NCBI GenBank assembly: GCA_037441845.1
Contig: JBBIRK010000006.1
Location: 148,880 to 212,879 of the forward strand
Length of the DNA: 64,000 nucleotides
Origin: Candidatus Zixiibacteriota bacterium
Lineage (GTDB): Bacteria > Zixibacteria > MSB-5A5 > UBA10806 > 4484-95
Direction of reading: 5' to 3'
Of the stretch, positions 16,404 through 34,337 are shown in pieces (the first letter of the stretch is position 1; each line of letters opens with the position of its first letter). Below the pieces are notes generated by a model. That model had not been told where the DNA came from, did not search any database, and saw only the letters and a list, made by a program, of their open reading frames with translations. Position numbers and translations under genes: made by a program.

Positions 16404-16437
16404 CACCGCGTCCTCCTTCAAACGACCTCCGGCCGGC

Positions 16438-16529: not shown

Positions 16530-17687
16530 TCAAGCCATCGCCTCTTCCTTATACGACAGAGCTATTTTGTAGAAGATAGTAACCAAGAAGAAGCCGATCG
16601 CATAGACGCCCAACGATATCAGCAATTCCGGAATAGTGGGGGAATATTCCGTCACATGTCCGATAGGCGAGGGCACGAATCCGGCTACCACCATCCCCAG
16701 CCCTTTGTCGATCCAAATGGAGCCGAAAACCATCAAACACGCCGCAATCAGCAGCCCGTTCACACGCCGCAATTTCGGCACTATCAATATCACCAGCGAC
16801 AGCACCGCCAGAAACACCGAGGTCCACATCCATGGCACCAACCGCGATTTCCCCTCGAGGCCGAAATACAGATACCGGAAATGCTCCAGATGTTCCGGAA
16901 TATTGCTGTAAAACGCGGTGAAAATCTCCATTAGGATAAAGAATACATTGATACACATGGCATAAGTTACAATCTGCGTCAGCTTGCCTATCGCCTCCTG
17001 CCCGGCGTCGAATTTGGTTAGCTTACGGATAATAAAACACATCAGTATCAACAGGGCCGGCCCCGAGGCAAAAGCGGAGGCGAGAAAACGCGGGGCCAAT
17101 ATCGCGGTCAACCAAAACGGTCGAGCGGCCAAGCCCGAATACAGGAAAGCGGTAACCGTATGGATACTTATCGCCCACGGAATGGACAAAATTATTATCG
17201 GTTTTATCCAGCCCGGAGGGGCGATCGCCTTGCGCTCGGCGTTTAATGTCACTCTGCTGATTATCACGTTCAATAATAGGTAGCCGCCCAGGGCTATCGA
17301 ATCCCAGAACATCAACGAATGGGGCGTCGGATACAACATGACGTTGGGAACGCGGGTCGGCTGTCCCATATCGACGAAAATGAACAACATGCACATCATC
17401 ACCGCGGCGATAGCCAAAAATTCGCCCAGAATAGTTATTTTCCCGAACGCCTTGTAATTATGCAGATAATAGGGCAATACCACCATCACCGCCGAGGCGG
17501 CCACACCGACCAAGAAAGTGAATTGCGCGATATAAAATCCCCAGGTGACGTCGCGGCTCAATCCGGTGATACCCAGGCCGTAGGCAAGCTGTTTCAAATA
17601 AAACAAGAAGCCGATGAAAATCACAATTCCCAGCAACGTTATCCACAGCCAATATCTTCGATCTCCGATTAGCGCTCTTTCCAGCAT
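16530..17687 (-). CDS. dsrP: DsrP, NrfD/PsrC-family integral membrane quinone-interacting subunit of the DsrMKJOP complex.
   Basis: 385-aa polytopic membrane protein (about 10 TM helices). It is the last gene of the dsrMKJOP array. Confidence 0.8.
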   Translation of the reverse strand: MLERALIGDRRYWLWITLLGIVIFIGFLFYLKQLAYGLGITGLSRDVTWGFYIAQFTFLVGVAASAVMVVLPYYLHNYKAFGKITILGEFLAIAAVMMCMLFIFVDMGQPTRVPNVMLYPTPHSLMFWDSIALGGYLLLNVIISRVTLNAERKAIAPPGWIKPIIILSIPWAISIHTVTAFLYSGLAARPFWLTAILAPRFLASAFASGPALLILMCFIIRKLTKFDAGQEAIGKLTQIVTYAMCINVFFILMEIFTAFYSNIPEHLEHFRYLYFGLEGKSRLVPWMWTSVFLAVLSLVILIVPKLRRVNGLLIAACLMVFGSIWIDKGLGMVVAGFVPSPIGHVTEYSPTIPELLISLGVYAIGFFLVTIFYKIALSYKEEAMA

Positions 17688-17694
17688 ATTTACC

Positions 17695-18477
17695 TCAAAC
17701 TATGTAATAGATTTGCGGTTTGGTGCCGAGTCCGGCCTTGCGGCGGATAGTGAAATTTTCGCTGAGGATCCGCCTTACCTCCGAATCCGGATTTTCCAGG
17801 TCGCCGAAATGCAGCGCCTTATGTTTGCAGGCTTCGACACAGGCGGGAAGCAATCCCTTGGCCAGCCGCTCCTCGCAGAAAGTGCACTTTTCGACCACGC
17901 CGCGGCTGCGCGTCGGAAATTCCGGGCGCAGTTCTTTTATGAAAGGACGGGGATCGCGCCAGTTGAAACTGCGCGAACCGTAAGGACAGGCGGCCACGCA
18001 ATAGCGGCAGCCGATACACCTGTGCCAATCCATCATGACGATTCCGTCTTTGCGGCGCCAGGTAGCCTTCGTCGGGCAGACTCCCACGCAGGGGGGATTG
18101 TCGCAATGGTTGCAAAGCACCAATACCGGCTTTTCGAGCACCTCATGAACCAAATGCTCATGTTCTAAATCCGGAAACGCCCCCTCGAATTTTTCTTTCC
18201 ATATCCATTTGATTTCGTCTTTCGGATTATCGAACCGGGGCACATTATGGGTCAGATGACAGGCCTCGATACAATCGCGGCAATTATCAACCTCACGGCA
18301 TTTCCGAAAATCGACCACCATAGCCCAGCGGGCGGCGGTCAGCGGACCGCTGGTTTGCGGCGGATTGACGATCAGCGAATCCTCGCCGGCTATAGCCCGC
18401 AAAGGGAAATTGATTGCGCAGCCGAACGCCGCCGCTGAACCGGCCAAACGCAAAAATTCCCGCCTATTTACTGACAT
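17695..18477 (-). CDS. dsrO: DsrO, periplasmic ferredoxin-like 4Fe-4S protein with a Tat signal.
   Basis: The twin-arginine signal is MSVNRREFLRLAGSAAAFGCA. There are multiple Cys clusters (CRDCIEACH, CNHCDNPPCVGVCP, CIGCRYCVAACPYG, CTFCEERLAKGLLPACVEAC). Confidence 0.85.
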   Translation of the reverse strand: MSVNRREFLRLAGSAAAFGCAINFPLRAIAGEDSLIVNPPQTSGPLTAARWAMVVDFRKCREVDNCRDCIEACHLTHNVPRFDNPKDEIKWIWKEKFEGAFPDLEHEHLVHEVLEKPVLVLCNHCDNPPCVGVCPTKATWRRKDGIVMMDWHRCIGCRYCVAACPYGSRSFNWRDPRPFIKELRPEFPTRSRGVVEKCTFCEERLAKGLLPACVEACKHKALHFGDLENPDSEVRRILSENFTIRRKAGLGTKPQIYYIV

Positions 18478-18862
18478 TGCGCACCTCCTGCGGTTCCAGA
18501 TGGCAGTCCCAGCAATAAGGGCTGACGCCCACGAAGGTATGGCATTTGTCGCAAAAATCGGATTTGTTGGAATGGCAGTTCATACAAGTATTGGTCAGGC
18601 TCATTTCGATCTCTTTTCCCGTAAATGTCGTGTAAGTCCTGATTCCCCGACGAACTACCGAGTCGCGCCACTGATTGAGGAAATCCATGTGTGCGGCAGT
18701 CATATAATCTGTCGGAGCCACACATTGTTTTTCCGCTGTCACCAATTTCGGTTCCGGACGATAATCCGCTTGGCCGCTTATTAGAGCGTTATACCAGAAC
18801 GGCACCGTGATTATCGCCAGAAATATGATCAGTCCCGTCAAAATTTTACCAGCATCGTACAT
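18464..18862 (-). CDS. dsrJ: DsrJ, small trihaem cytochrome c.
   Basis: There are three CXXCH motifs (CMNCH, CDKCH, CWDCH), an N-terminal signal anchor, and the conserved extra Cys (EKQCVAP). The protein is 132 aa. Confidence 0.85.
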   Translation of the reverse strand: MYDAGKILTGLIIFLAIITVPFWYNALISGQADYRPEPKLVTAEKQCVAPTDYMTAAHMDFLNQWRDSVVRRGIRTYTTFTGKEIEMSLTNTCMNCHSNKSDFCDKCHTFVGVSPYCWDCHLEPQEVRNVSK

Positions 18863-18864
18863 AA

Positions 18865-20475
18865 TTACCGTTCCTCCCCCGGTGAAAACGGAGTTCCCCG
18901 CAGATCGACCTCCCGCTTTTTTTCGCCTTTCATTACCAACGCATTGCCGACCAGCTCATGCACGCCGGCAACCTCGACACCCGGCACCCAATATTCGAGC
19001 AGCGGCGGTAGCGTTGCTTTATCGATAGCGCAAATACAAGCCAGCAGATTGACGCCGTGCTTTTCACTGACGAACTTCACAGCGTTGGCTCGCGGCAAGC
19101 CTCCCCGAAGCCGCATTTCGAGATTTTCGTCGGTGCCCAATCCCGATCCGGAACCGCAGCAGAAAGTTTGCTCTCTGATAGTGTTTTCCGGCATCTCGTG
19201 GAAACGATTGCAGACGTTTTTCAATATATACCGCGGTTCCTCGAGCAACCCCATCGCCCTTGAGGGATTGCACGAATCGTGAAATGTCACGTTCCAATGG
19301 TCGTTGCGGCTCGGATCAAGTTTCAACTTTCCGTGCTTAATCAGGTCGGCGGTGAATTCGCAAATATGCACCATCTTGGTCGATTTGGCGTTTTCGAATC
19401 TGGTTCCCGTAATCGGCGAAACCGGCGGCTCGAGAAAATCGGCCGGACCGTTTATGGTGTCCATATATTGGTGAAGCACCCGCCACATATGCCCGCATTC
19501 GCCTCCGATTATCCATTTCACTTTCAGGCGGCGCGCTTCGGCGTAGATTTTGTTGTTCAGCCTTTTCATCATCTCGGCTGAATGGAACAGGCCGAAATTG
19601 CCCCCTTCGGAGGCATAAGCGCTGAAAGTATAGCTCAATCCGATTTCGTGGAACAGCGCCAGATAACCCAAGAGCGTGTAATAATGAGGCGTGCCGAAAT
19701 AATCCGCCGACGGCACCACGAATAAGATGTCTTTACCTTTCTCGTTGATCGGAGCGTTCACTCGTATTCCGGTCAATTCCTCAAGTTCGTCGACCGCGAA
19801 TTCGATACTGTCTTTGAATCCGTGGGGTTGAATTCCGAGATGATTGCCGGTGCGGAAACAATTGGCCGCCGGAGTGGTAATCCAGTCGATCCCGCAGCCG
19901 ATCAGATTCAACAGCTCGCGCACCATCATCGTAATTTCCGCCGTGTCTATTCCATAAGGGCAAAAAACCGAGCAGCGGCGGCACTCGGTGCATTGATAGA
20001 AATAATAGAACCACTCCTTCACGACTTGCTCGGTCAATTCTCTGGCGCCGGCCATCCTGCCCATTATCTTGCCCGCCAAAGTGAAATCGTTGCGATAAAC
20101 CGAACGGAGCAGCTCGGCGCGCAAGACCGGCATGTTTTTGGGATCGCCCGAACCGATGAAAAAATGACACTTGTCGGCGCAAGCTCCGCAGCGCACGCAT
20201 ATATCCATAAAAATTTTCAACGAACGGTATCGGTTCAGACGTTCTCGCAGCCCGTTCAAAATGATTTCTTTCCAATTTTCCGGCAACTTCCAGTCGGCGT
20301 CGGTCGGTTGCCATTTGCGGACATGGGGCAAGCCGAGATATTCAGCGCGCTCGGGAACCGCCGCATAATTGTATGTTCCGTGGCGGAATTCGACCGCCGG
20401 ATCCATCCAGCTTTTTTTCGGAGGATTATAATCTATGCGCCCGAGCTCTTCGGGTTTAGGTGTCTTTTCAGCCAT
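18865..20475 (-). CDS. dsrK: DsrK, HdrD-like catalytic subunit (4Fe-4S plus CCG domains).
   Basis: Motifs: CVRCGACADKCH, CTECRRCSVFCPYG, HDSCNPSRAMG, TFCCGSGSGLG. The start was moved to the ATG at 20475 (MAEKTPKPEELG). That ATG overlaps the dsrM TGA stop as ATGA. Confidence 0.85.
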   Translation of the reverse strand: MAEKTPKPEELGRIDYNPPKKSWMDPAVEFRHGTYNYAAVPERAEYLGLPHVRKWQPTDADWKLPENWKEIILNGLRERLNRYRSLKIFMDICVRCGACADKCHFFIGSGDPKNMPVLRAELLRSVYRNDFTLAGKIMGRMAGARELTEQVVKEWFYYFYQCTECRRCSVFCPYGIDTAEITMMVRELLNLIGCGIDWITTPAANCFRTGNHLGIQPHGFKDSIEFAVDELEELTGIRVNAPINEKGKDILFVVPSADYFGTPHYYTLLGYLALFHEIGLSYTFSAYASEGGNFGLFHSAEMMKRLNNKIYAEARRLKVKWIIGGECGHMWRVLHQYMDTINGPADFLEPPVSPITGTRFENAKSTKMVHICEFTADLIKHGKLKLDPSRNDHWNVTFHDSCNPSRAMGLLEEPRYILKNVCNRFHEMPENTIREQTFCCGSGSGLGTDENLEMRLRGGLPRANAVKFVSEKHGVNLLACICAIDKATLPPLLEYWVPGVEVAGVHELVGNALVMKGEKKREVDLRGTPFSPGEER

Positions 20476-21470
20476 CACTTGTCCTTTTCCATAGGCAATC
20501 CAGAGGCCTTGATCTTGTCGGCGAATTCTTCTTCCCACTCCTCGTAAGTGTGCACTTTAACCGGATAATCCCACGGATTGATATGCCGCCGGCTTCGGCT
20601 GTCATTGGGCATATTGCGCGTAGGGGATAAGAATACTCCGCCCATATGCATCAGTTTGCCATAAGGGAAATACGCCACCAATACACAAACCAAAAACAGG
20701 TGCAAGTAAAATAAAACTCCCAACCCGTCCGGCACGACCGGATTGAAACTGACAAGCCCCATCGCCAACTCTTTGACCGCCACGATATCGGTCTTGAAAA
20801 AATACCTCATCAACACTCCGGTCACCGCGATCGATCCGATCAGAAGCAAGGGAAAATAATCCGCGAAAAGGGAAAAATACCGCAGTTGAGCCGAAAACAA
20901 CCGCCGCAAAAACAAAAAAGTCAATGCCGCCAGCAGCGTGATATTAGTGATATATATAATCGGCACCCCGATCTGGAAAAAGCCGTCGATACTTTGCAAC
21001 AGTTTGACGAATCCCGGCACGGGCTCGGCGAAATAACGGTAATGACGCAGAAAGACGATTAAAAACGACCAATGAAAAACGAGTCCGCCCAACCATAACC
21101 ACTTGTTGGCGCTGTAGGTCAATTTCGGTCCCGTCCTCAATTCGGCTTTGGTGTTCCGAAACAGCGAACGGAACAGCAGCACTTCGAGCGCCATGCGGAC
21201 TATTACTCCCAACTTGGAACTCGGGTTGTCGATTTTATTCGATTTTATCCAGGGAAGGGAGGTCTGCTGGCCGCAAGTGGTTGTGATTTTGAACGGCACC
21301 GGCGATTTAGACCAGCCGATCACCCGATAGACCACACCGGCAAAAAACGCCGCAATCGCCGCATAAGGGATTACCACCCCGAACAGTGATTGCAATCGCA
21401 GCATTCCCGACCCGATCAAAGCAATCGCTATCAAACCACCGGCCGCCAGAAAAGATACGAAGGCATTCAT
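20475..21470 (-). CDS. dsrM: DsrM, NarI-family dihaem cytochrome b membrane subunit.
   Basis: 331 aa, 5-6 TM helices, C-terminal YFPYGKLMHMGGVF, and a position upstream of dsrK. Confidence 0.8.
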   Translation of the reverse strand: MNAFVSFLAAGGLIAIALIGSGMLRLQSLFGVVIPYAAIAAFFAGVVYRVIGWSKSPVPFKITTTCGQQTSLPWIKSNKIDNPSSKLGVIVRMALEVLLFRSLFRNTKAELRTGPKLTYSANKWLWLGGLVFHWSFLIVFLRHYRYFAEPVPGFVKLLQSIDGFFQIGVPIIYITNITLLAALTFLFLRRLFSAQLRYFSLFADYFPLLLIGSIAVTGVLMRYFFKTDIVAVKELAMGLVSFNPVVPDGLGVLFYLHLFLVCVLVAYFPYGKLMHMGGVFLSPTRNMPNDSRSRRHINPWDYPVKVHTYEEWEEEFADKIKASGLPMEKDK

Positions 21471-21518: not shown

Positions 21519-22037
21519 TTATACCTCGTCTTGAATATCGTTGCTTTCGAGAAGACACGCTCTATCGAGCAGTTTCTGATATCTGCGCTTGAATTCGTTT
21601 ATTTTAATCCGACCCAGCTGTTCCCGGCATTCCATGTAAATATCGAAACAATTCAGCGCGATTTCGTCGATCTTTTCGGATATGCGGGCATATTCCTTCC
21701 GGGTTTCGTGATCCTCCAGATCGACCGCAAGTTCCTCGCTTATTATTTTTTTCAATTGAAATATGAAACCGAGCGCCCGCGATGGATCGAAATCCTGCAC
21801 CGCCCTGATCTTGATCAGCTCGATCGGCAATTTCCCGTCGTGATCGCCGCTGTCCAACAACCGGTCGTAAATGCAGGCCAAGTTTTCTTTCATGGTGTGA
21901 CCGACCGGATTCAGAAATCGATCGCGTTGATTTTTAAGGTGCGCCCTGGCGCGCGGCTCATAAGTGGCCACGACACTGTCGGTCCATTTGTCGAGAATCC
22001 CTTCTCGGCGTTGCCGCAGCAGATTCAAAAGCGACAT
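21519..22037 (-). CDS. dsrT: DsrT-like protein (RsbRD-N-like domain protein commonly encoded between dsrC and dsrMKJOP).
   Basis: 172-aa soluble helical protein with no cofactor motifs. The call rests mainly on its position between dsrC and dsrM and on general similarity to DsrT/RsbRD_N proteins. It was not verified by alignment. Confidence 0.4.
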   Translation of the reverse strand: MSLLNLLRQRREGILDKWTDSVVATYEPRARAHLKNQRDRFLNPVGHTMKENLACIYDRLLDSGDHDGKLPIELIKIRAVQDFDPSRALGFIFQLKKIISEELAVDLEDHETRKEYARISEKIDEIALNCFDIYMECREQLGRIKINEFKRRYQKLLDRACLLESNDIQDEV

Positions 22038-22138: not shown

Positions 22139-22456
22139 TTAAACGCAGCCGGTCGGTTTCGCCAATCCGGCGACCTTGCAGGCTCCCTTGGCCGGTCCCG
22201 AGGGAAACAGCTCGTAGATCTCTTTCAGCGAAAATCCGGTTTCCTTGCAGAGCTTGCGGATCATCGGCGCGATACCGAATTTCTGATAATAATCGCGCAG
22301 ATAGTTGACTACCTTCCAGTGCTTTTCCGTCATTTCGGTTACGCCCTCGGCACCGGCGAGCGCTCTGGCTACATCCTCATTCCATTTATCCATTTCCTGG
22401 ATAAACCCGTCCTCATCAACCTCGATTCTCACGTTTCCTGCTTCGAAAATCGGCAT
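22139..22456 (-). CDS. dsrC: DsrC, with the conserved C-terminal swinging arm carrying both cysteines.
   Basis: 105 aa ending ...FPSGPAKGACKVAGLAKPTGCV. This is the GAC(K)...PTGCV DsrC signature. Confidence 0.9.
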   Translation of the reverse strand: MPIFEAGNVRIEVDEDGFIQEMDKWNEDVARALAGAEGVTEMTEKHWKVVNYLRDYYQKFGIAPMIRKLCKETGFSLKEIYELFPSGPAKGACKVAGLAKPTGCV

Positions 22457-22497: not shown

Positions 22498-24180
22498 CTA
22501 ATGCATCTCGATATATCCACAGGGACAATTCTCCGCGCATTTCTTGCAGCCGTTGCAAAACTCGAGTTTGAATTTATACTCCTGCCCCCGCACTAAAGGC
22601 TTAACGATCGCGTTGTCCTGGCATAGACTCCAGCAGGTTCCGCAATCGAAACAAAGGCCGCAGCTCATGCAACGCTTCGATTCTGCCACCGCCTCCTCGA
22701 ACGTCAACGTGCTGGTGATCTCGGCGTCGAGGCTTTTCAGCCTTTCTTCAACCGGAAGCTGTTTCGCTTTGACCGGGTGCGCCTCGGGGAAATAAGTATG
22801 AGCCATCTTGTCCAACGTTATCAAATCCAGCTTTTCCGGCACGCGGATCGGGTTATTCGAAATCAATTCGTCGATCGCCAGCGCCGCCATCCGCCCGTGA
22901 TAAATCGCGGTGATCACCAACCCCAGTTCGATATCGTCTCCGCCGGAATAAGTCCCAGCGTCCCTGGTCTGACCCTTTTCGTCAACCTTGATCCAATCTT
23001 TTCCATCTATCAATTTGTCCAACCCGGTGAAATCCGGCTCCTGGCTTATCGCCGCTATAAGAGTGGAAAATTTCAAGTCGAACGTGTCACCTTCGATTGG
23101 AACCGGCCGCCTTCTTCCCGATGAGTCAGGTTCACCCAATTGCATCCTCTGACATTTGGCGCCGACCGCTTTGCCGTTTTCCTGATAAATTTCTATCGGA
23201 GCCGCAAGATATTCGATAGCCACGCCCTCTTCCTCGGCGCCATCGATTTCCTCGCAGATCGCCGGCATCTCCGCTCTGGTGCGGCGGTATAAAATCGTGG
23301 CTTTGGCGCCCAATCTGCGGGCTACACGAGCGGCATCTATAGCGGTGTCACCGCCGCCGATCACCACCACATGATCTCCGACATCGAGCTTTTCGCCGGT
23401 GTTTATCCGGTGAAGAAACGCCGTTCCCGTAAAAACGTTGGGGGCATCTTCACCCTTAATCCGAAGTTTAATCCCTTGATGCGCTCCGATCCCCACGAAA
23501 ATCGCCTTGTAATCTTGTTTCAGCTTATCGTAGGCGATATCTTTGCCGACGATGGTGTTCGTTTTGAGTTCCACTCCCAGGTCGACTATCCGCTGTATTT
23601 CGGCGTCGAGAACATGCTGCGGCAGGCGATAGTCCGGTATCCCGTAGCGAAGCATACCGCCCGTCTTCGGAAACGCCTCGAATACCGTAACCGGATAACC
23701 GCGGCGGGCAAGCTGGTAAGCGCAAGACATACCGGCGGGGCCGGAACCGATTACCGCTATTTTCTCGGCCTTTTTCGTTTCGCTGATCAGTCTGGGCTTG
23801 AGGTTTTTGGATAATCCATAGTCGCCTATAAATCTCTCGATATTATTGATCCCGACCGCGCCTTCTTTATCCTTGCGATTACACTGGCTTTCGCATGGGT
23901 GTGGGCAAACCCGGCCGCATACCGAAGGGAACGGGGTCGTTTCGAGAAATATGTAGAACGCTTTCGCCAGGGTTTCATCGTAACTCTGACCGAAATCCTC
24001 GGTTCTCGAAATCGCCGTGATCATCTCCCGAATTCTGTTGTGATTCGGACAGGTATTTATGCATGGCGGCATCTTTTCCACCAGCTTGGGGCGCAATGGG
24101 GAGGTCTCTACGCTCGAGCCCCCCGACGATCGCGAAAGACTTCGCAAACCGGTTTTGGTTTTTTTGACTATTTTAGCCAT
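22498..24180 (-). CDS. dsrL: DsrL-like NAD(P)H:acceptor oxidoreductase. It is GltD-like with an extra C-terminal 2x[4Fe-4S] ferredoxin domain, probably the short DsrL-2 type.
   Basis: GltD-like N-terminal Cys cluster (CINTCPNH...CGRVCPHPCESQC). FAD site VIGSGPAGMSCAYQLARRG. NAD(P) site VVVIGGGDTAIDAARVARRLG. C-terminal ferredoxin CMSCGLCFDCGTCWSLCQ...CNGCKKCAENCPCG, which GltD, NfnB and SudA lack. It sits between dsrN and dsrC. Confidence 0.65.
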   Translation of the reverse strand: MAKIVKKTKTGLRSLSRSSGGSSVETSPLRPKLVEKMPPCINTCPNHNRIREMITAISRTEDFGQSYDETLAKAFYIFLETTPFPSVCGRVCPHPCESQCNRKDKEGAVGINNIERFIGDYGLSKNLKPRLISETKKAEKIAVIGSGPAGMSCAYQLARRGYPVTVFEAFPKTGGMLRYGIPDYRLPQHVLDAEIQRIVDLGVELKTNTIVGKDIAYDKLKQDYKAIFVGIGAHQGIKLRIKGEDAPNVFTGTAFLHRINTGEKLDVGDHVVVIGGGDTAIDAARVARRLGAKATILYRRTRAEMPAICEEIDGAEEEGVAIEYLAAPIEIYQENGKAVGAKCQRMQLGEPDSSGRRRPVPIEGDTFDLKFSTLIAAISQEPDFTGLDKLIDGKDWIKVDEKGQTRDAGTYSGGDDIELGLVITAIYHGRMAALAIDELISNNPIRVPEKLDLITLDKMAHTYFPEAHPVKAKQLPVEERLKSLDAEITSTLTFEEAVAESKRCMSCGLCFDCGTCWSLCQDNAIVKPLVRGQEYKFKLEFCNGCKKCAENCPCGYIEMH

Positions 24181-24195: not shown

Positions 24196-25647
24196 TTATA
24201 ATGCTTTTTTTAACGCAGGTTTATTTTCACTGTTCAGGCGGTTCGCAGCAGCTGCCTTCTGCTTATATTCAATCGCCTTTTGCACGAATGCGGGCGCCCA
24301 CGATTTGACACCTTCGGCATGGATATGCAGATAACTTGCCATCGAGTTTTTGAAGACGATGCCGTCGCGTTTTCCCCCCAAGCCGGTTCCGATCTTCAGC
24401 CCCAGGCAGGTTGTATACTCATTATTCGAAAAATCCAGCGGATATGTATAATGAAATTCATGTCCCTTGATTATAGTGCCCCGCTCGTAATAAGGATTAT
24501 CTTTATCTACGACAGCCACCTCATAGCCGTGGCCGGCCGGTTTATCGCCGATACCGAGTCTTAAATTCAAAATCGAGGCCATCGGGTAACTCGCATGGTC
24601 CAATTCCAAGCTTTTTGATAGATAAATAAGGCCGCCGCATTCGGCGTAGATCGGCATGCCGCTTTCCGCCGCCTGTCGCACCGATTCCATCATGCTTTTA
24701 TTCGAGGCCAACCGCGCGGCGTGCGTTTCGGGGAATCCTCCCCCGATATAGAGGCCGTCCAGCTCCGGCAGACGGGGCTCGTCCAAAGGCGAAACCGCAA
24801 TGAGTTCGGCTCCAAAACGCCTTAAAGCCTCCAGATTTTCAGGATAATAAAAGGTGAAAGAAGAATCCGCGAAATAACCGATTCTTGCTTTTTTCGGAAT
24901 ATCTTCCGGAATTTCCGCGAAAACGTTGTGTTTGATCTCCATCGCCGGCGCCTGCGCAGCCACCTTGATCAATTCATCGATCTCTATGAATTCGCCGCCG
25001 ATTTGCATTGTTTTTTCTTCCAGTTTTTCCATCTTCCCGAATTCGTCCGGAGGTATCAGCCCGAGGTGCCGCTGAGGAATCAAATGATCGTGTTCGGTAA
25101 ATGACGGGATCGCTCCCAGAACGGGGATTCCGCAATACTTGGCTATCGATTCCTGGATTACCTTACGGTGTCTGGCGCCGGCCACTTTATTGAGGATAAC
25201 CCCTTTAATCTGCAGTTTTTTGTCGAAATCGAGACACCCTTTCAGCAGTGCGGCGATGGTTCTCGTGGTTTTGGCGGCATTGATCACCAGAACCACCGGC
25301 GACTGAATCAGTTTGGCCAGCTCGGCCGTGCTGTTTACCCCCGATTCATCTCTGCCGTCGAAAATTCCCCGGTTGCCCTCGACAACCGCGATATCGCAAT
25401 CGCTTGATCTCGAAACGAACGATCTCCATACCAATTCGGGTTCTGCCATGAAGGTGTCGAGGTTGTAGCAGCTTCGCCCGGCGATTTTACCCAGCCAGGC
25501 TGAATCGATATAATCCGGCCCCTTTTTGAATACCGCCGTCCTCAGGCCGCGGCGACGCAGAGCCGCCACGGCGCTGAGACAAACTATCGTCTTGCCGGAA
25601 TCGCCGGACAAACCGGCGATCACCAGCCGGGGCAATTCAAACCGCAT
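24196..25647 (-). CDS. dsrN: DsrN, cobyrinic acid a,c-diamide synthase homologue (sirohaem amidase).
   Basis: The CbiA/CobB N-terminal ATPase motif is VIAGLSGDSGKTIVCLSA. The C-terminal glutamine amidotransferase domain has an active-site Cys (YAECGGLIYL). It lies directly downstream of dsrABD. Confidence 0.8.
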   Translation of the reverse strand: MRFELPRLVIAGLSGDSGKTIVCLSAVAALRRRGLRTAVFKKGPDYIDSAWLGKIAGRSCYNLDTFMAEPELVWRSFVSRSSDCDIAVVEGNRGIFDGRDESGVNSTAELAKLIQSPVVLVINAAKTTRTIAALLKGCLDFDKKLQIKGVILNKVAGARHRKVIQESIAKYCGIPVLGAIPSFTEHDHLIPQRHLGLIPPDEFGKMEKLEEKTMQIGGEFIEIDELIKVAAQAPAMEIKHNVFAEIPEDIPKKARIGYFADSSFTFYYPENLEALRRFGAELIAVSPLDEPRLPELDGLYIGGGFPETHAARLASNKSMMESVRQAAESGMPIYAECGGLIYLSKSLELDHASYPMASILNLRLGIGDKPAGHGYEVAVVDKDNPYYERGTIIKGHEFHYTYPLDFSNNEYTTCLGLKIGTGLGGKRDGIVFKNSMASYLHIHAEGVKSWAPAFVQKAIEYKQKAAAANRLNSENKPALKKAL

Positions 25648-25675: not shown

Positions 25676-25921
25676 TTAATCGTTGGCCGCGCCTTCTTTA
25701 TGCGGCAATTCGATAAAACTGCCGCCGAAATAAGTGTAAACGCAGCGGCCGGAATTCATCAGCTCTTTAATGGCTTCTTTGCAGAGCTGTTTGTCGACCT
25801 CGTCGCCGTAGAGCTCGATCATGGCCTTGGTCAGATCGGTCGCTTTCAGCTTCTTTTGACCGGTCGATTCCTTGACCAATTTGTACATCGCATCGGCGAT
25901 TTCACTTACGGTTTTAGCCAC
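25676..25921 (-). CDS. dsrD: DsrD, small winged-helix protein of reductive dsr operons.
   Basis: 81 aa, Lys-rich. Its C-terminal ...SGRCVYTYFGGSFIELPHKEG resembles the DsrD ...EYWSSGSTTMYGLKG end. It is positioned immediately after dsrB. Confidence 0.7.
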   Translation of the reverse strand: MAKTVSEIADAMYKLVKESTGQKKLKATDLTKAMIELYGDEVDKQLCKEAIKELMNSGRCVYTYFGGSFIELPHKEGAAND

Positions 25922-25933: not shown

Positions 25934-27016
25934 TCAAAAGGTTAAATGCGTCGAACGCTTAAAGGTCAGGCCGGCATGCTTGAAATCATCGATATGCTCT
26001 TTGCGGAATTCTATTCCGGCCATCCTGAAAAAGCGCGGCCAGCCGATACGCTCGATCCATTCGCCCATGCGTTCGTATTTCTTGGCATTCTTGGCCCAGA
26101 GCTCGACGATGTTCTTGACTGCGCTGGTAACCTCGGGCCAACGCGGCGGATTGTTGGGCAAGAACGGTATCGCCAGCTTCGAAAACATCGGCTCATGTCT
26201 GGCATTGGACACTTTGCCGCCTACCCAGATAGATACGCCGTCGTTGAGCGGATCGTTCAATTTCATGGCCGGGCAGACGGTATAGCAGTTGGCGCAGAAC
26301 ATGCAGCGCTCTTCGATAACCTCAACCGATGGCTTGCCGTTCACCGTCGCCGGTCTGATCGCCGCCGTCGGGCAGGAGGCGCTGACATTGGGAATTTCGC
26401 AGATGTTTTTCAAATTGTCATGGTCTATTTTCGGCGGCCTGCGATGTATCCCGAGAATCGCGATATCCGAACAATGCACCGCGCCGCACATATTGAGGCA
26501 GCAGGCGAGCGCGATCCGTAGTTTGCCGGGCAGCTTCATGTTCTCGAAATAGTCGATCAATTCGTCCATCACCGATTTGACGATGCCCGAAGCGTCGGTG
26601 GCGGCCGAGTGGCAATGGATCCACCCCTGGGTGTGCACGATACTCGAAATCGAGTTCTGAATTCCGCCGACCGGATGGCCGAGCGCTTTTACTTCTTTGA
26701 TCAATGGCTCGATATTTTCCGGCTTGGTGAGCAGAAATTCCACGTTATGCCGGCTGGTGAAACGCAGATAGCCGTCGCAGTATTTATCCGCCAGATCGGC
26801 ATACATCCTGATTTTCTGAATGCTCAGCAACCGCGGCGACCCCACCCGAACTGAGTAAAGTTTATCGCCGCTTTCGGCCACATGGACCATCACCCCGGGT
26901 TTTATGACCTCATGATATCTCCATTTGCCGTAATTCTTCTTGATAATGGGCGGCAAAAATTTCTCGTAATGCGGCGGACCAATATCGGTTTTTCTTGCCT
27001 GTGCTGTTTCTGCCAT
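25934..27016 (-). CDS. dsrB: Dissimilatory sulfite reductase beta subunit.
   Basis: [18 protein letters not shown], sirohaem/FeS Cys clusters ([13 protein letters not shown]), and the ferredoxin insert CPTAAIRP...[12 protein letters not shown]. Confidence 0.9.
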
Positions 27017-27053: not shown

Positions 27054-28259
27054 TTACTTCTCTTCTTCGCTCTCGTCCTCTTCGAAATACTCCTCATAGA
27101 ACACATAGGGGTTTTCGCGTGGATGAGCGACCATTTCGGGGATCGGTTCCACCCCTATGGCCTCGAGGAAATTCCCCATACCGACGCGTTGGATGAATTC
27201 CCCGACACGCTCCCGGTTTTTCCCTTCCTCACTCCAGATCTCCCAGATTTTGGCCAGAAGTTCCTTGATCTCGGTGTAGGGCGGCTCGATCTTTATAAAG
27301 GGGACTATCACCGATGACAACAGCGCGCCTTCGATAATGGGTGCCTTGGAACCGAGCAACAGCGCCGCGCCTCTGTCTTTTCCCGGCCGAAGCGCTTTGG
27401 GCATGACATTTATGCAGTGCATGCAGCGGCGGCAGTAGCTGTTATCGATATGGAGCTCCTTGCCGTCCCAATCCATGCACTTGGCGGGGCAATTATCGAC
27501 CACTTCCGAGCGGATATCCATTCCTTTGGCGGCATATTCTTTAACCGCTTCCTTATCGACCTGAATGCTGTCGCGCCAAATCCCGATCACCGACAAATCG
27601 GCTCGGGCGATCGATGCCACGCAATCGTTCGGACAACCCGACATTTTAAGTTTGAACTTATAGGGAAACGCCGGCCGGTGAAGCTCATCCTGAAAAGCCA
27701 TCGTTAGGTCGTAAGTCAACGCCAGCGTGTCGTAACAAGCCCATTCGCAGCGGGCGGGACCGACACAGCAACTCGGCGTCCTTACATCTGACCCGGAGCC
27801 GCCCAAATCGAATCCGGCCTGAGTCAATTCGGAAAATATCGGTTCCAACTCGGCCGTCTGGGTGCCCAGGAAAATAATATCGCCGGTGGAGCCGTGCATG
27901 TTGGTCAATCCCGAGCCGTGTTTTTCCCATATATTGCAAAGCGTGCGCAGCGCCTCGGAGGTGTAAAACCAACCCGACGGCTGATTTATACGGATCGTAT
28001 GGAAATGTGAGATGTGGGGGAACTTATCCGGCAGATCGGAATAGCGGCCTATGACTCCGCCGCCGTATCCCATCACGCCCACGATCCCTCCGTGTTTCCA
28101 GTGCCCGATTCGCTCGTTGTATGATTGCTCGAGCTGGCCGAGAAGATCGGTCGCCATCGGGCTTTTCTGGGAGGCAAGCTTGATTTCCTTGACGAAACTC
28201 GGCCATCGGCCTTTCTCGAGTTCGTCAAGCTTGGGTGTCTTGTAATGATTATCGGCCAT
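27054..28259 (-). CDS. dsrA: Dissimilatory sulfite reductase alpha subunit.
   Basis: [21 protein letters not shown]-terminal signature. [17 protein letters not shown] sirohaem-[4Fe-4S] coupling Cys. Ferredoxin domain [10 protein letters not shown]...[12 protein letters not shown]. Acidic C-terminal tail. Confidence 0.9.
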
Positions 28260-28621: not shown

Positions 28622-30859
28622 CTACATGCCTTTATATGGATTAGGCCCGATCTTGTCAATCTCCTCGAGAAATCCGTCGAAAATCTCCGGGATTTTCCGA
28701 TAGTCGCTTATAGCCAACTCATGCAGCCTGACCCGTTCCTCCTCCAGCACCAACTGCTTCAATTTCTCCCGTACGTTCGACATCCGCGTTGCCGCCAGCT
28801 CGCTTCCCCTGATAAAGTGGCATTGGTAATCATCGCCCTTTTTGCAACCGATAAGCAGCACGCCGTCGAATCCGCTGGCCAAAGCATCGCTGACCCAGAC
28901 GGTATTCATCGAACCCAGGCATCGCAAAGGGATTAATCGAATCATCGCATTGTAACGCAATCGCATCAATCCGGCCATATCCACCGATGGCAAAGCGTCG
29001 TTTTCGCAGATAAAAGCCAAAATCCGCGGTTTTTCCTCGAACTCGTCGGGAATGTGGATCGATTTGATCATCTGCGACATCATGTTCACGTTGTAGTTCT
29101 TGAACGAGATTATCCGCTCGGGACAGGCGCCCATGCAGACGCCGCAGCGCCGGCAACGGAATGGATTGGGAAGCGGTGTTCCTTTTTCGTCCTCGTCGAG
29201 AGTCCCAAAAGGGCACTCCTCAGTGCACCGCTTGCACTGGGTGCATCGCTGCATGAAAAATTCCGGAAAACTTGCATCTCCCGACCGCGGATGCACGGCC
29301 AGCCCCCGGGATACCGCCTCGACCGCCTGAATCGCTTTCAACGCCGCCCCGTAGGCATCATCGCGGCTCTCGGCGAATCCCATCGGGGCCCGCACCGCCC
29401 CGCAGGCGTAGATCGCCGTCCGCCTGGTTTCATAGGGAAAACAGATATAATGGGAATCGGGAAAGCCGTATTTGAGGGTGGGGAGATCTGTTCCTTGACG
29501 GTAAGTCAAATTGATTATTTTCGCCCCCTTCTCGGCGCCTGCCGCTTCCTTTTTGCCATCGGCGGTGGTGGCTGTTTGATCGCCTGCGGTATCGCCGACG
29601 GATTCCTCCTCGAGCGTCTCGACTTTCGTGGCTGGAACCATCCCCGTGGCCAGGACTACCAAATCCGCCTTGATAGAAATGCTTTCCCCCAAGAGCGTGT
29701 CAGTCGCTGTAACCAGTATTTTCCCCGAATTATCTTTGGCGACTTCCTTGATTTCGCCTTTGGTGAAAAATACGGCGTCATCGTCCTGAACCTGCGCATA
29801 AAACAGCTCTTGCTGGGCAGGAGTCCGCATATCCTTGTAAATAATATAGATTTTTGTGTCGGGATAGCTTCGCCTTATATACAGGGCCTGTTTCAAGGTG
29901 ACCAAACAACAAACCGACGAACAATAGGGGAGATGGTTCTCGTCGCGTGAGCCGGCGCACTGAATGAAAACCACGCTTTCAGGTTTCTTGCCGTCCGATG
30001 GCCGTTTTATTCCCCCGTTGCCCATCATCCGCTCGATATCGACGTTGGTCACGACGTCCGGGGAAATTCCGTAACCCAGATGCGTCAGTTTGCCGGGGTC
30101 GTAGGCGCGCCAGCCGGCCGCCAAAATTATCGCTCCGACCTCGATCTGTTTGCCGCCGGATTCGTTTTTCAAAGTAACGGCGAATTTGCCGGGCTGCCCG
30201 CTGGTTTTTTCGACGACGGTTGACGTGTAAACTTGAATGTTTTTGTTTGAATTCACCTTTTGCAGAAGGTCTTGCAGCCCGGTATCATCGAGGTTCGAAT
30301 AAGGGGAAATACGAGGGTATGATTTCGTAGTTTTCGCCGCCCAGCCGCCGAGCTCTTTTTCTTTTTCGATCAGCACCGCCTGATAACCGGCCTCGGCCAC
30401 GGCCAGAGCCGCCTGTAAACCGCTCATTCCGCCGCCGATCACCATGATCGATTTGCTGGTCGGTTCGATATACGGCTCGGGCGGTTCCGAATTCTGCAGC
30501 CTGGCTATTCCCATTCTGATATAATCCTCGGCCAGCATCTGCGTATCTTCGTCGTTGGGTGCATGAGACCAGGCTACCTGTTCGCGCAAACTGATTCTAT
30601 CGGTTAAGACATCCTTACCGAAATCAAACAGTTCCGTAAATACGCGGCCCGAACAGGCGGCGATCGCCACCCGGTTGAGATTCTCGGCCTTGATATCGTC
30701 CTTTATCGATTCGACCGTTTCTTTGGCGCACAGAACGGCGTGCGATTTGCAAACGGCGGCTTTTCCACCCTTGGCCGCCTCAGCGACGAGTTTTTCGATA
30801 TCGATTGCTTTTTCGATATCACAGCCACGGCAAATATAAACTCCAATTTTCGTGTCCAT
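28622..30859 (-). CDS. qmoB: QmoB, HdrA-like flavoprotein with a C-terminal MvhD-like domain.
   Basis: 745 aa. FAD site IMVIGGGMSGLQAALAVAEAG. Several 4Fe-4S Cys motifs. C-terminal MvhD-like ILAFICENDALPSV...LIGCKKGDDYQCHF. Confidence 0.8.
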   Translation of the reverse strand: MDTKIGVYICRGCDIEKAIDIEKLVAEAAKGGKAAVCKSHAVLCAKETVESIKDDIKAENLNRVAIAACSGRVFTELFDFGKDVLTDRISLREQVAWSHAPNDEDTQMLAEDYIRMGIARLQNSEPPEPYIEPTSKSIMVIGGGMSGLQAALAVAEAGYQAVLIEKEKELGGWAAKTTKSYPRISPYSNLDDTGLQDLLQKVNSNKNIQVYTSTVVEKTSGQPGKFAVTLKNESGGKQIEVGAIILAAGWRAYDPGKLTHLGYGISPDVVTNVDIERMMGNGGIKRPSDGKKPESVVFIQCAGSRDENHLPYCSSVCCLVTLKQALYIRRSYPDTKIYIIYKDMRTPAQQELFYAQVQDDDAVFFTKGEIKEVAKDNSGKILVTATDTLLGESISIKADLVVLATGMVPATKVETLEEESVGDTAGDQTATTADGKKEAAGAEKGAKIINLTYRQGTDLPTLKYGFPDSHYICFPYETRRTAIYACGAVRAPMGFAESRDDAYGAALKAIQAVEAVSRGLAVHPRSGDASFPEFFMQRCTQCKRCTEECPFGTLDEDEKGTPLPNPFRCRRCGVCMGACPERIISFKNYNVNMMSQMIKSIHIPDEFEEKPRILAFICENDALPSVDMAGLMRLRYNAMIRLIPLRCLGSMNTVWVSDALASGFDGVLLIGCKKGDDYQCHFIRGSELAATRMSNVREKLKQLVLEEERVRLHELAISDYRKIPEIFDGFLEEIDKIGPNPYKGM

Positions 30860-30860
30860 C

Positions 30861-32156: not shown

Positions 32157-32618
32157 ATAATTCTCCTTAAACCCTTATTCCCGCAACAAATGCTGGTATT
32201 CTCCAAACCCGAAGACTATACCGCAATTTGTGAAATAATTAACAATACCGGGCAAAAAAATCACCGTAAGGTTCTGCAGATTTTCCATAGCCGCTTCAAA
32301 TTAACAATCGCTAATTTCATATGTCAAGCAATAATCCGATTTTTTATCCCGATCATGGTCAACTTATATCATATTAGGAGATTCATTTTTTTTCTTGACA
32401 GGCTTTGTGAAAAAAAATACATTTCCCCCAAGAAATGAAATTTTGGGGAAATCGGCGCCGAGCTGGATTTTTTTGGTGATACATTGTGAAAAAAATAACA
32501 AGAATATTGGCCGCTCAATCTTTCTTTTCCCCGGTTTTCACGCCGATCCGCTTGCTCGATCAATCGAATTTATTCCATCGATATTAATCGAAACAACTAA
32601 AAGGTGACAGGAAGGCCT

Positions 32619-33845: not shown

Positions 33846-33876
33846 ATCGATAGCTTAAACGATACAGGAGGTTTGA

Positions 33877-34317
33877 ATGCCGAGTTATGTGATTTTCGAC
33901 AAATGTGATGGTTGCAAGGCGCTCGATAAAACGGCCTGCCAGTATATTTGTCCGAATGACTTGATGGTGCTTAACAAAGAAAAAATGAAAGCCTACAATC
34001 AAGAGCCGGAAATGTGCTGGGAGTGCTATAGCTGCGTGAAGATCTGCCCCGTCCAGGCGATCGAAATCCGCGGCTATGCCGATTTCGTGCCGTTGGGTGC
34101 CAGTGTCACCCCCATGAGAAGCAGCGATTCGATCATGTGGACCGTCAAGTTCCGCAACGGAATGCTGAAAAGATTCAAATTCCCGATTCGCACTACTCCG
34201 GAGGGTCAGGCCAAACCGGACGGCGGCTTTGCCACCGCTCACGACGATCTGAACAGCCAAGTCCTGGCCCAAGAGCCCGAGGCGCTGAGAACCAACGAAG
34301 TTTACACCATTAAGTAA
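33877..34317 (+). CDS. aprB: Adenylylsulfate (APS) reductase beta subunit.
   Basis: MPSYVIFDKCDGCKALDKTACQYICPNDLM...CWECYSCVKICPVQAI gives two 4Fe-4S clusters, followed by the AprB C-terminal tail. The RBS is CAGGAGG. Confidence 0.9.
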   Translation: MPSYVIFDKCDGCKALDKTACQYICPNDLMVLNKEKMKAYNQEPEMCWECYSCVKICPVQAIEIRGYADFVPLGASVTPMRSSDSIMWTVKFRNGMLKRFKFPIRTTPEGQAKPDGGFATAHDDLNSQVLAQEPEALRTNEVYTIK

Positions 34318-34337
34318 TAAGTCGGAGGAAGCTGAAT

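Follow-up and report, generated by a model that had tools for sequence, protein, structure and literature searches.

A type-2 DsrL in a reductive-type dsr operon of Zixibacteria-like affiliation, predicted to carry NADPH electrons to DsrAB

The dsr operon and its surroundings

The window (the whole 64-kb stretch of DNA analysed here) contains a compact dsr cluster in the order dsrA-B-(81-aa dsrD-like gene)-N-L-C-T-MKJOP, with qmoAB, sat and aprBA adjoining. On the minus strand, dsrA of the reductive bacterial type (27054..28259; TIGR02064, 588 bits) is followed by dsrB (25934..27016; TIGR02066, 515 bits), by a gene for an 81-aa dsrD-like winged-helix protein recognized by position, size and AF2 fold (25676..25921), and by dsrN, encoding a CobB-like siroheme amidase (24196..25647; NF002204, 417 bits; Pfam GATase_3 and CbiA). 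Next on this strand come dsrL (22498..24180) and dsrC (22139..22456; PF04358, 133 bits), whose product has both C-terminal cysteines (…GACKVAGLAKPTGCV), then dsrT with its RsbRD_N domain (21519..22037; PF14361, 60 bits) and the dsrMKJOP membrane complex genes (16530..21470; NF038037 for DsrM, NF045796 for DsrK, NF038038 for DsrJ, Fer4_11 for DsrO and NrfD for DsrP). A CoA-disulfide-reductase/rhodanese gene comes after dsrP. Intergenic gaps from dsrA to dsrP range from -64 to 101 nt, and dsrL, four genes downstream of dsrA, is separated by 15 nt from dsrN upstream and by 41 nt from dsrC downstream, the placement that the preliminary description had given. Directly upstream of dsrA, and also on the minus strand, lie qmoA and a qmoB-FlpD fusion (28622..32156; Pfam), while sat, aprB and aprA (32604..36263, plus strand; ATP-sulfurylase, APS-reductase_C and FAD_binding_2) are divergent from qmoAB-dsr. 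With the operon beside qmoAB and sat-aprBA, the window thus holds a complete dissimilatory sulfate-reduction island. No dsrEFH is found within the 64 kb, so the absence of these genes claimed earlier holds for the window only, and the dsr operon contains no partner ferredoxin gene. Scans for promoters and terminators give no more hits than shuffled sequences do, so that the candidate operon bounds at 28563-28536 and 16475-16446 are suggestive at most.

The gene order is kept in locus L083, whose DsrL is 94% identical, and in the Ignavibacteria MAG loci L001 and L002; in L045 it is the same up to dsrL, where the contig ends, and it is partly kept in the Zixibacteria chromosome CP070824.1. The placement of dsrL with dsrAB/dsrC is also kept in L084, and qmoA/qmoB-FlpD followed by dsrA is common to L001, L045 and L083. 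Across the Zixibacteria and Ignavibacteria loci compared, the dsrN-dsrL-dsrC position is strictly conserved. In the Chlorobium limicola cluster, a gene with a weak RsbRD_N match occupies the place equivalent to dsrT, before dsrM. Our contig scan with the DsrL alignment used the generic motif G[SA]GP[AGC]G[LM]S[CAF]A, and the matches listed are mostly GltD/NfnB relatives; among them, a dsr context is present only in L001, L002, L003 and L045, and no Allochromatium, Chlorobaculum or Desulfurella locus appears.

The 81-aa protein starts 12 nt after dsrB, and AF2 models it as a winged helix (H-b-H-H-b-b, pLDDT 82.8). Its ORF has no sequence match in Pfam, NCBIfam or the PDB (phmmer), and the Pfam DsrD model PF08679 fails to match it even at E<=10, although Desulfovibrio vulgaris DsrD, taken as a control, scores 118 bits against the same library. 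An hhalign comparison of its alignment A1 with the D. vulgaris protein gives a probability of 0.2%. PF08679 likewise misses the homologues from L001, L002, L003 and L045, and the 120 homologues listed are 78-100% identical. By Foldseek, the DsrD structure 1ucr_A ranks 36th (76 columns, TM 0.63/0.67), with generic winged helices in the better ranks. We therefore use the weaker term DsrD-like rather than DsrD, as position, size and fold match but the Pfam model fails; the co-occurrence with dsrD described earlier stands to that extent. Ferreira and colleagues are said to have found in 2022 that DsrAB is allosterically activated by DsrD. DsrD of the canonical kind activates sulfite reduction and is missing from sulfur oxidizers (PMC8794893), and the literature does name proteins such as this one DsrD (Hausmann 2018, PMC6018796; Diao 2023 Table S1, PMC10591310).

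Domain architecture and fold of DsrL

The dsrL ORF begins with ATG, fills exactly 22498..24180 of the minus strand and encodes 560 aa. NCBIfam NF009410 (PRK12771) matches the protein end to end: residues 25-559 cover positions 35-562 of the 566-position profile, and the score is 575.7 bits (cut-off 516). An NfnB/GltD-like Fe-S domain occupies residues 37-125 (23806..24072, minus strand; PF14691 Fer4_20, 60.6 bits); alignment A2 shows no variation at its cysteines 40, 44, 92, 96 and 100, but does at Cys88. The FAD and NAD(P) Rossmann folds follow at residues 140-429 (22894..23763, minus strand; Pyr_redox_2 PF07992, 97.4 bits; PF00070, 51.2 bits; PF13450, 40.6 bits), and the translation contains the GSGPAG and GGGDTA motifs. 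The motif Y298-R299-R300 (23281..23289, minus strand), a predicted determinant of NADP(H) specificity, aligns with the YRR of Thermotoga maritima NfnB and Pyrococcus furiosus NfnI-L. Near the N-terminus, residues 26-44 (TSPLRPKLVEKMPPCINTC; 24049..24105, minus strand) carry an S-x-x-R-P motif in which Arg30 occupies the Cys site of oxidative-context DsrL.

The 'RCMSCG' motif and a 2x[4Fe-4S] ferredoxin domain lie at residues 503-556 (22513..22674, minus strand). Ten C-terminal cysteines are invariant in an alignment of 18 diverse DsrL-like sequences, eight of them in the two CxxCxxCxxxC motifs C510-x2-C513-x2-C516-x3-C520 and C542-x2-C545-x2-C548-x3-C552-P. Pfam Fer4_7 scores 22.9 bits on residues 510-555, under its 27-bit cut-off. 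The AF2 model (pLDDT 88.3, pTM 0.87) matches the part of NfnA/StnC that comprises NfnL and the ferredoxin, over some 600 columns at TM 0.80-0.81 by Foldseek, but plain NfnB/NfnL over only about 430, so that the former match is some 170 columns longer. The C-terminal ferredoxin domain is thus real, on Cys motifs and fold, despite the sub-threshold Fer4_7 score. The DsrL architecture proposed at the outset (GltD-like Fe-S N-terminus, FAD and NAD(P) sites, C-terminal ferredoxin) is borne out by Pfam, NF009410, the ten invariant cysteines and AF2. Identity as NfnB, SudA or GltD is ruled out, since plain GltD/NfnB-like proteins lack residues ~441-560 and fall in the outgroup of our tree.

DsrL appears to be circularly permuted relative to NfnB. 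An HMM of its residues 472-511 matches the N-terminal 'EA.RC..C' of GltD/NfnB-like proteins.

Since the closest solved relatives, by sequence and by fold, are NfnL-type modules of the bifurcating NfnABC, StnABC and NfnSL enzymes, DsrL could be pictured as a flavin-based bifurcating or confurcating module that splits NADPH electrons between DsrAB/DsrC at high potential and ferredoxin at low potential. Its FAD lies between two Fe-S branches, as in NfnB, and the extra ferredoxin domain would offer a second exit route. However, the bifurcation site of NfnABC has been assigned to B1-FMN-C1 rather than to the NfnL-like FAD (PMC11829005), the operon lacks a gene for a partner ferredoxin, and the kinetics reported for DsrL fit a simple NAD(P)H:acceptor oxidoreductase (PMC7596348). 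We regard bifurcation as highly improbable.

Type assignment and predicted electron transfer

Within DsrL, type 2 is marked by the YRR motif and, relative to DsrL-1A, by a missing NAD(P)-domain insertion of ~32 aa and a linker shorter by ~30 aa (Loffler 2020, PMC7596348). At the insertion site, the DsrL of this window has 12 residues, compared with 42-64 in four of five insertion-clade proteins; the exception, P0423, also has 12. The linker is 63 residues long, a length compared with DsrL groups other than A. vinosum DsrL-1A. YRR is not found in Chlorobium or SAR324 DsrL-1B, but it is ancestral in NfnB/GltD relatives too and hence splits type 2 from type 1 only inside DsrL. An Arg at the position aligned with NfnB Cys42 characterizes DsrL-2 of organisms with reductive DsrA (Loffler 2020, PMC7596348); the window protein reads 'TSPLRP' there, with Arg30, whereas all 12 DsrL proteins of two oxidative-context groups read 'S-x-K-C-P' or 'G-M-C-P'. 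Desulfurella amilsii DsrL-2 works with NADP(H) exclusively (Loffler 2020, PMC7596348). The YRR residues at 298-300 predict NADPH, not NADH, as the substrate; the link from NAD(P)H to DsrAB put forward in the preliminary description is supported, as a prediction, by domains, motifs, synteny and clade, with NADPH alone as the expected cofactor.

In a neighbor-joining tree, the window DsrL falls in a clade with Zixibacteria and Ignavibacteria proteins of the same operon (87% bootstrap), apart from the GltD/NfnB outgroup and from the Chlorobium DsrL-1B clade (90%). The insertion clade is separate too (86%) and includes P0412, which has an rdsrAB-L context. The deep nodes have 7% support, and labelled references such as DsrL-1A of A. 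vinosum, DsrL-2 of D. amilsii and others from the published trees are not among the sequences; the '2C' assignment accordingly draws on motifs, on gene context and on the trees in the literature. The DsrL of L003 is frameshifted (257-aa ORF) and was left out. The Sulfurisoma protein of L015, considered as a DsrL-1A anchor, was dropped, as it has no dsr neighbors and a PorD-type N-terminus.

YRR and the same architecture also occur in DsrL-like proteins outside any dsr context (L012, L015, L016 and L024), so architecture alone is not diagnostic. Such proteins, among them those of the non-sulfur organisms Succinivibrio (L012) and Propionibacterium (L016), and the bare name 'NAD(P)-binding protein' that NCBI gives the NF009410/PRK12771 family would suit a generic NADPH oxidoreductase that merely travels with dsr genes and serves an acceptor other than DsrAB, in cofactor maturation with DsrN or in redox homeostasis. 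Yet the clade of the window DsrL is distinct from these context-free relatives, the dsrN-dsrC placement does not vary over the Zixibacteria and Ignavibacteria loci, Acidobacteria carry a dsrL-dsrC pair downstream of dsrAB (Hausmann 2018, PMC6018796), and A. vinosum DsrL co-purifies with rDsrAB and hands electrons to it (PMC7596348; PMC6018796). A generic role of this kind is, in our judgment, extremely improbable.

The window DsrA scores 565 and 530 bits against the DsrA of Archaeoglobus fulgidus and D. vulgaris, respectively, compared with 405-410 bits against two rDsrA from oxidative contexts, which supports its being closer to reductive than to oxidative DsrA. Together with YRR, the missing insertion, Arg30, synteny and the 87% clade, these scores agree with the earlier view of a short, DsrL-2 kind of protein in a reductive-type operon. 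The combination of DsrL-2C, dsrD and reductive dsrAB has been proposed as an indicator of reductive metabolism (Diao 2023, PMC10591310), and sulfate reduction has been demonstrated in a related acidobacterium (PMC10564751).

As the preliminary description hinted, the DsrL-2/DsrAB set might still work, at least part-time, in the oxidative or disproportionating direction, converting DsrC-bound sulfur to sulfite and passing the electrons via DsrL to NADP+, so that the island would be reversible. DsrL-2 also occurs in two Chlorobi that are proven sulfur oxidizers, the D. amilsii enzyme uses both NADPH and NADP+, and HGW-Zixibacteria-1 was first proposed as a sulfur oxidizer (Loffler 2020 Table S1, PMC7596348); reversal has been proposed for Acidobacteria with the same gene set (Hausmann 2018, PMC6018796), and the CoA-disulfide-reductase/rhodanese gene after dsrP would fit. 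Set against this are the reductive type of DsrA, the absence of dsrEFH from the window, and Arg30, the reductive-DsrA state, in place of the Cys seen in every DsrL examined from an oxidative context. The operon includes a DsrD-like gene, whereas canonical DsrD is missing from sulfur oxidizers (PMC8794893); the gene combination is the proposed reductive indicator (PMC10591310), and the related acidobacterium is a sulfate reducer (PMC10564751). Oxidative or disproportionating operation thus seems unlikely. A more elaborate version, which we consider decidedly unlikely, would have Zixibacteria run one reductive-type DsrAB set reversibly, with DsrL-2 as an NADP(H) valve and the unusually conserved, Cys-bearing DsrD-like protein setting the direction: the valve would give NADPH electrons in sulfate/sulfite reduction and reduce NADP+ in sulfide/sulfur oxidation or disproportionation. 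The evidence leans against such a valve: DsrA is reductive, residue 30 is Arg, the window has no dsrEFH, and the gene combination is the one proposed in print to indicate reductive metabolism.

We consider it highly probable that the ORF encodes a Zixibacteria-like (FCB group) type-2 DsrL of the reductive subcluster DsrL-2C (Diao 2023), co-transcribed with the reductive dsrAB operon and acting as NADPH donor to DsrAB. The putative co-transcribed set would comprise dsrAB, the DsrD-like activator candidate, dsrN, dsrL, dsrC, dsrT and dsrMKJOP. DsrL biochemistry exists for the A. vinosum, Chlorobaculum tepidum and D. amilsii enzymes only (Loffler 2020, PMC7596348), and A. vinosum DsrL co-purifies with rDsrAB and passes electrons to it (Loffler 2020, PMC7596348; Hausmann 2018, PMC6018796). 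By analogy with A. vinosum DsrL-1A/rDsrAB and D. amilsii DsrL-2, we infer that the enzyme is specific for NADPH, that it pairs physically with DsrAB and which way the electrons flow. As a plausible mechanism, NADPH bound at the YRR site would reduce FAD, and the electrons would travel to DsrAB through two pairs of [4Fe-4S] clusters, first the pair in the NfnB-like domain and then the pair in the C-terminal ferredoxin domain. DsrAB with DsrC would convert sulfite to the DsrC trisulfide, which DsrMKJOP would reduce with menaquinol-derived electrons. DsrL-2 would thereby be all or part of the soluble source from which DsrAB draws electrons, supplementing DsrMKJOP rather than replacing it. If DsrL-2 does feed NADPH electrons to DsrAB, this would settle for these lineages the long-standing question of which soluble protein supplies dissimilatory sulfite reductase with electrons; fewer electrons would cross the membrane route, which bears on the energy conserved. 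For metagenomes, it means that dsrL is no longer usable as a marker of sulfur oxidation.

Relation to known systems

Each of these implications has been put forward before, in published work on Acidobacteria, Zixibacteria and other groups. DsrL-2 with dsrD and reductive dsrAB in the absence of dsrEFH is already in the literature of 2005-2023, for Zixibacteria (Loffler 2020, PMC7596348; Diao 2023, PMC10591310) and for Acidobacteria (Hausmann 2018, PMC6018796). The novelty implied in the preliminary description therefore does not hold: a 2018 paper on Acidobacteria voiced the same surprise and hypothesized the same reversibility, and papers of 2020 and 2023 explicitly list Zixibacteria as having the genotype. 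The window adds no new concept; it is a further well-assembled case in which a single contig carries the entire pathway, and a handy cloning template.

Among solved structures, the best matches are the NfnL-like module of NfnA/StnC (9bov_A, 9n5u_A, 8oh5_C) and NfnB/NfnI-L (4ylf_B, 5jca_L), at 313-365 bits by sequence and TM 0.80-0.81. They share the YRR NADPH site, and NfnA/StnC also have the 'EA.RC..CG' motif after the FAD/NAD module, but such modules belong to large bifurcating enzymes of several subunits that are not linked to sulfite reductase; NfnB/NfnI-L differ in having no C-terminal ferredoxin domain and an N-terminal RC..C motif. The DsrL-1B of C. limicola (P0439, locus L081), at ~38% identity, has the same domain order and the ten C-terminal cysteines and adjoins dsrAB and dsrC. 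However, it lacks YRR ('SGVPRD'), is predicted to be NAD(H)-specific and has Cys where the window protein has Arg30, and its cluster, dsrNCABL-EFH-TMKJOP, encodes an oxidative rDsrAB, contains dsrEFH and lacks a dsrD-like gene.

Acidobacteria (Ca. Sulfopaludibacter and others; Hausmann 2018; Dyksma & Pester 2023) share DsrL-2, dsrD, dsrN, dsrT, dsrMKJOP, sat, aprBA and qmo, and in the Acidobacteriaceae locus L003 the DsrL is ~60% and the DsrD-like protein 55% identical to those of the window. They differ in arrangement, with dsrD-dsrN as a separate pair and dsrL-dsrC after dsrAB, whereas the window has the single string dsrABD-N-L-C. D. amilsii DsrL-2, by its published description, has the same YRR, short NAD(P) domain and short linker, the same association with reductive-type DsrAB and the same predicted strict NADP(H) dependence; that organism reduces sulfur and thiosulfate, whereas the window carries the full sulfate-activation set (sat, aprBA, qmoAB).

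The closest named homologues, at 68-73% identity, are Zixibacteria proteins, and the nearest public protein is P0001 (ENA metagenome), 94% identical. Zixibacteria have been placed in the DsrL-2 branch, and the catalogue lists SURF_9 RJP73754, HyVt-29 HDL03316, SpSt-1246, KS3-K099 and HGW-Zixibacteria-1, as well as the Wadden Sea fosmid protein CAJ31166 (Loffler 2020, PMC7596348); Zixibacteria MAGs have been scored dsrD=1, dsrEFH=0 and dsrL=1 (Diao 2023 Table S1, PMC10591310). Zixibacteria DsrL-2 (Loffler 2020), or DsrL-2C (Diao 2023), likewise has ~560 aa, YRR, the Arg of the N-terminal motif and no insertion. The loci share the dsrA-B-D-N-L order, as implied by accession spacing, and the MAG genotype is the same (sat, aprAB, qmo, dsrABCD, dsrL, dsrT and dsrMKJOP, without dsrEFH). 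We find no difference of kind: the window DsrL is a different species-level sequence of the Zixibacteria DsrL-2.

Setting of dsrL and the protein at the dsrD position

The gene of the 560-aa DsrL occupies 22498-24180 on the minus strand with an ATG start, as the preliminary description had placed it. In minus-strand order, the genes begin with qmoA (32156-30861) and a qmoB-FlpD fusion (30859-28622; Pfam) and continue with dsrA (28259-27054), dsrB (27016-25934), an 81-aa ORF (25921-25676), dsrN (25647-24196), dsrL (24180-22498), dsrC (22456-22139), dsrT (22037-21519) and dsrM, K, J, O and P (21470-16530), which bears out the position of dsrL between dsrN and dsrC. The genes sat, aprB and aprA (32604-36263, plus strand) diverge from qmoAB-dsr. 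Intergenic gaps from dsrA to dsrP measure -64 to 101 nt. In a promoter/terminator scan of the window, in which the number of sites was not above chance, the 362-nt gap upstream of dsrA contains the best promoter-like site of that strand (28563-28536), and the strongest terminator-like hairpin (16475-16446) lies just past dsrP, before a 577-aa oxidoreductase gene. DsrC retains both C-terminal cysteines, and the reported absence of dsrEFH holds within the 64-kb window, where DsrE, DsrF and DsrH of Chlorobium limicola had no match by tblastn (best E 0.067).

The window DsrA scores 565 bits against A. fulgidus DsrA and 530 bits against D. vulgaris DsrA, but only 405-410 bits against two rDsrA sequences from oxidative contexts. 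These scores and the neighbouring sat-aprBA-qmoAB support a reductive-type assignment of DsrAB at the level of sequence. Beside this evidence, operation of the DsrL-2/DsrAB set in reverse, a direction raised in the preliminary description, seems unlikely.

The claim that the 81-aa ORF is dsrD is the weakest of the preliminary description: its position and its winged-helix model stood, while the Pfam DsrD model fails on it. The protein matches nothing in Pfam, NCBIfam or PDB sequences, whereas D. vulgaris DsrD, a control sequence checked against 1UCR, scores 118 bits with the same Pfam model. Homologues from Ignavibacteria and Acidobacteriaceae do not match that model either, and a profile of 27 homologues aligns with D. 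vulgaris DsrD at an hhalign probability of 0.2%. The family is conserved above any neighbour (identity 78-100% among 120 matches listed of 1921). Its predicted structure is a clean winged helix that aligns over 76 columns with DsrD 1ucr_A (TM 0.63/0.67), although 1ucr_A comes no higher than rank 36 in a list of generic winged helices. The wing motif reads 'VYTYFGGS' as against 'YWSSGSTT' in Desulfobacterota DsrD, and a conserved cysteine pair (C46 invariant, C59 in at least 90%) contrasts with the zero cysteines of canonical DsrD. The same family is counted as dsrD in the field (Hausmann 2018, PMC6018796; Diao 2023 Table S1, PMC10591310). Judged by sequence and model, we call the protein DsrD-like and withhold the label DsrD.

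Several neighbouring features were also observed. QmoB (28622-30859, minus strand) carries a C-terminal FlpD/MvhD-like domain and is followed not by qmoC but, at 362 nt, by dsrA, a layout common to L083 and to loci L001 and L045 from the profile search of genome contigs. Directly 3' of dsrP, the 577-aa protein (14715-16448, minus strand) is a pyridine-nucleotide-disulfide oxidoreductase that ends in a rhodanese domain and resembles CoA-disulfide or persulfide reductases, and L083 has a Pyr_redox gene at the equivalent place. Downstream of the operon, hemA, a sirC-like NAD_binding_7 gene, hemC, cobA-hemD, hemB and hemL (8038-14684, minus strand) fit a local supply of siroheme for DsrN amidation; the dsr cluster of C. 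limicola has a similar end. A 225-aa protein (37712-38389, minus strand) consists of two tandem DsrC-like domains, both without the C-terminal cysteine arm of DsrC, the second terminating in '…GAVKIAGLRVR' and the first in other sequence; its gene adjoins a second pair of DsrM-like (NarI) and DsrK-like (CCG/Fer4_8) genes (38972-41526, minus strand).

Domain order and fold of DsrL

Pfam picks out three parts of DsrL: an NfnB/GltD-type Fe-S domain at residues 37-125 (Fer4_20, 60.6 bits), an FAD/NAD(P) fold at residues 140-429 (Pyr_redox_2, 97.4 bits) and, below threshold, a dicluster ferredoxin at residues 510-555 (Fer4_7, 22.9 bits). An alignment artefact as the source of this last domain is excluded by ten C-terminal cysteines invariant in 18 of 18 DsrL-like proteins (identity down to 36%), two CxxCxxCxxxC motifs among them; the claimed C-terminal 2x[4Fe-4S] ferredoxin domain thus survives proper alignment. 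The NCBIfam model NF009410 (PRK12771, 'NAD(P)-binding protein') spans DsrL end to end (575.7 bits, cut-off 516), and a PRK12771-type function unrelated to DsrAB is, in our judgement, extremely improbable.

The AlphaFold2 model (pLDDT 88.3, pTM 0.87) aligns over ~600 columns with the NfnL-plus-ferredoxin portion of NfnA/StnC, chains of the NfnABC and StnABC transhydrogenases (TM 0.80-0.81), but over only ~430 columns with plain NfnB/NfnI-L (TM 0.67). Electron bifurcation by DsrL might be proposed by analogy with these Nfn relatives, which match it in sequence and fold, yet we hold it to be very unlikely.

DsrL residues 472-511 (window 22648-22765) include '…EEAVAESKRCMSCG', with 'RCMSCG' at residues 503-508 (window 22657-22674). 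An HMM of this segment matches the N-terminal 'EA.RC..C' in 22 of 23 plain GltD/NfnB-like proteins (E 1e-4 to 1e-7), where it sits directly ahead of their 'C…CP' motif; in the solved NfnA and StnC (9bov_A, 8oh5_C, 9n5u_A) the motif lies past the FAD/NAD module, as in DsrL. On this evidence, DsrL appears to be a circular permutation of the NfnB/GltD arrangement. Cys504 and Cys507, both invariant, are probably homologous to Cys39 and Cys42 of NfnB and may be the 'missing' distal [4Fe-4S] ligands in place of Ser27 and Arg30; for this role, Loffler 2020 (PMC7596348) had put forward Ser/Thr and Arg. The modelled 'linker' has a pLDDT of 81-93, which argues against a floppy tether.

Motifs and phylogeny of the DsrL type

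DsrL-1A is marked by a ~32-aa insertion in the NAD domain, a longer linker and the lack of YRR; DsrL-1B also lacks YRR, and DsrL-2 has it, the D. amilsii enzyme being NADP(H)-specific; in DsrL-2 of organisms with reductive DsrA, the cysteine of the N-terminal motif is replaced by arginine (Loffler 2020, PMC7596348). Inspection of the NADH-versus-NADPH specificity residues of the window protein revealed the DsrL-2 marker, Y298-R299-R300, with no insertion, a 63-residue linker and Arg30 in the N-terminal motif 'TSPLRP' (residues 26-31, window 24088-24105). Our anchors were P0439, named Chlorobium limicola, from a classical dsrN-C-A-B-L-(orf)-E-F-H-(T)-M-K-J-O-P cluster (L081), and P0412, from an rdsrAB-L locus (L082). 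YRR is missing from the Chlorobium/SAR324 group, in which a cysteine takes the place of Arg30; the P0412 group combines YRR with cysteine and, P0423 excepted, carries 42-64 residues at the insertion site. 'TSPLRP' aligns with the 'GSWRxxRP' start of non-DsrL relatives (P0253, P0267, L004, L015), so the arginine of reductive DsrL-2 may be ancestral and the cysteine of oxidative-context DsrL derived. Non-DsrL relatives with 'DYDYCKGCGIC..ECPR' C-termini resemble PorD-type ferredoxins.

In a neighbour-joining tree (64 sequences, 545 columns, 100 bootstraps), the window DsrL falls not with plain GltD/NfnB-like proteins but in a clade (87%) of NCBI-named Zixibacteria/Zixiibacteriota proteins, one named Latescibacterota and three from Ignavibacteria MAGs. 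Two of these three (L001, L002) share the qmoAB-dsrAB-81aa-N-L-C-T-MKJOP string, L002 without detected qmoAB, and the third (L045) shares it up to dsrL, the contig end. The nearest relative, P0001 (94% identical), comes from L083, whose gene order matches the window throughout its extent, including the Pyr_redox gene after dsrP and, beyond it, hemA, the sirC-like gene and hemC. Chlorobium DsrL-1B (90%) and an insertion clade (86%) form separate groups, and PorD-type relatives and plain GltD/NfnB-like proteins lie outside. Since deep nodes have 7% support and neither A. vinosum nor D. amilsii is represented by a labelled sequence, the label '2C' is based on motifs, on context and on published phylogenies that place Zixibacteria in DsrL-2 (Loffler 2020, PMC7596348). 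Five loci (L012, L015, L016, L024, L041) from Succinivibrio, Sulfurisoma, Propionibacterium and Gemmatimonadota genomes encode the full DsrL-like architecture, most with YRR, with no dsr genes within 10 kb, and fall inside the DsrL-like radiation; DsrL is thus not identifiable by architecture alone.

Proposed electron path and published Zixibacteria systems

The published reading, from NADPH to DsrAB, is the best supported. NADPH would reduce the FAD of DsrL, from which electrons would reach DsrAB by way of four clusters, first two in the NfnB-like domain and then two in the ferredoxin domain. DsrAB would reduce sulfite with DsrC, and the DsrC trisulfide would then be reduced by DsrMKJOP. The sequence-level steps come from the present analysis, and specificity, DsrAB partnership and direction would carry over by analogy from other DsrL enzymes (PMC7596348).

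The finding in this window is correct and already known. In 2005, environmental fosmids had already shown genes related to dsrL beside reductive dsrAB (Mussmann et al., cited in Loffler 2020, PMC7596348), and the fosmid protein clusters with Zixibacteria in the trees of Loffler 2020, which include several Zixibacteria DsrL-2 whose accession spacing implies an A-B-D-N-L order. For Acidobacteria, both the surprise over DsrL and the reversal hypothesis had been published (Hausmann 2018, PMC6018796). Diao 2023 (PMC10591310) proposed DsrL-2C, a 'reductive' DsrL-2 subcluster, as a reductive indicator, described a full Dsr set including dsrD and type 2 dsrL in Zixibacteria, and scored two Zixibacteria MAGs as dsrD=1, dsrEFH=0, dsrL=1 (Table S1).
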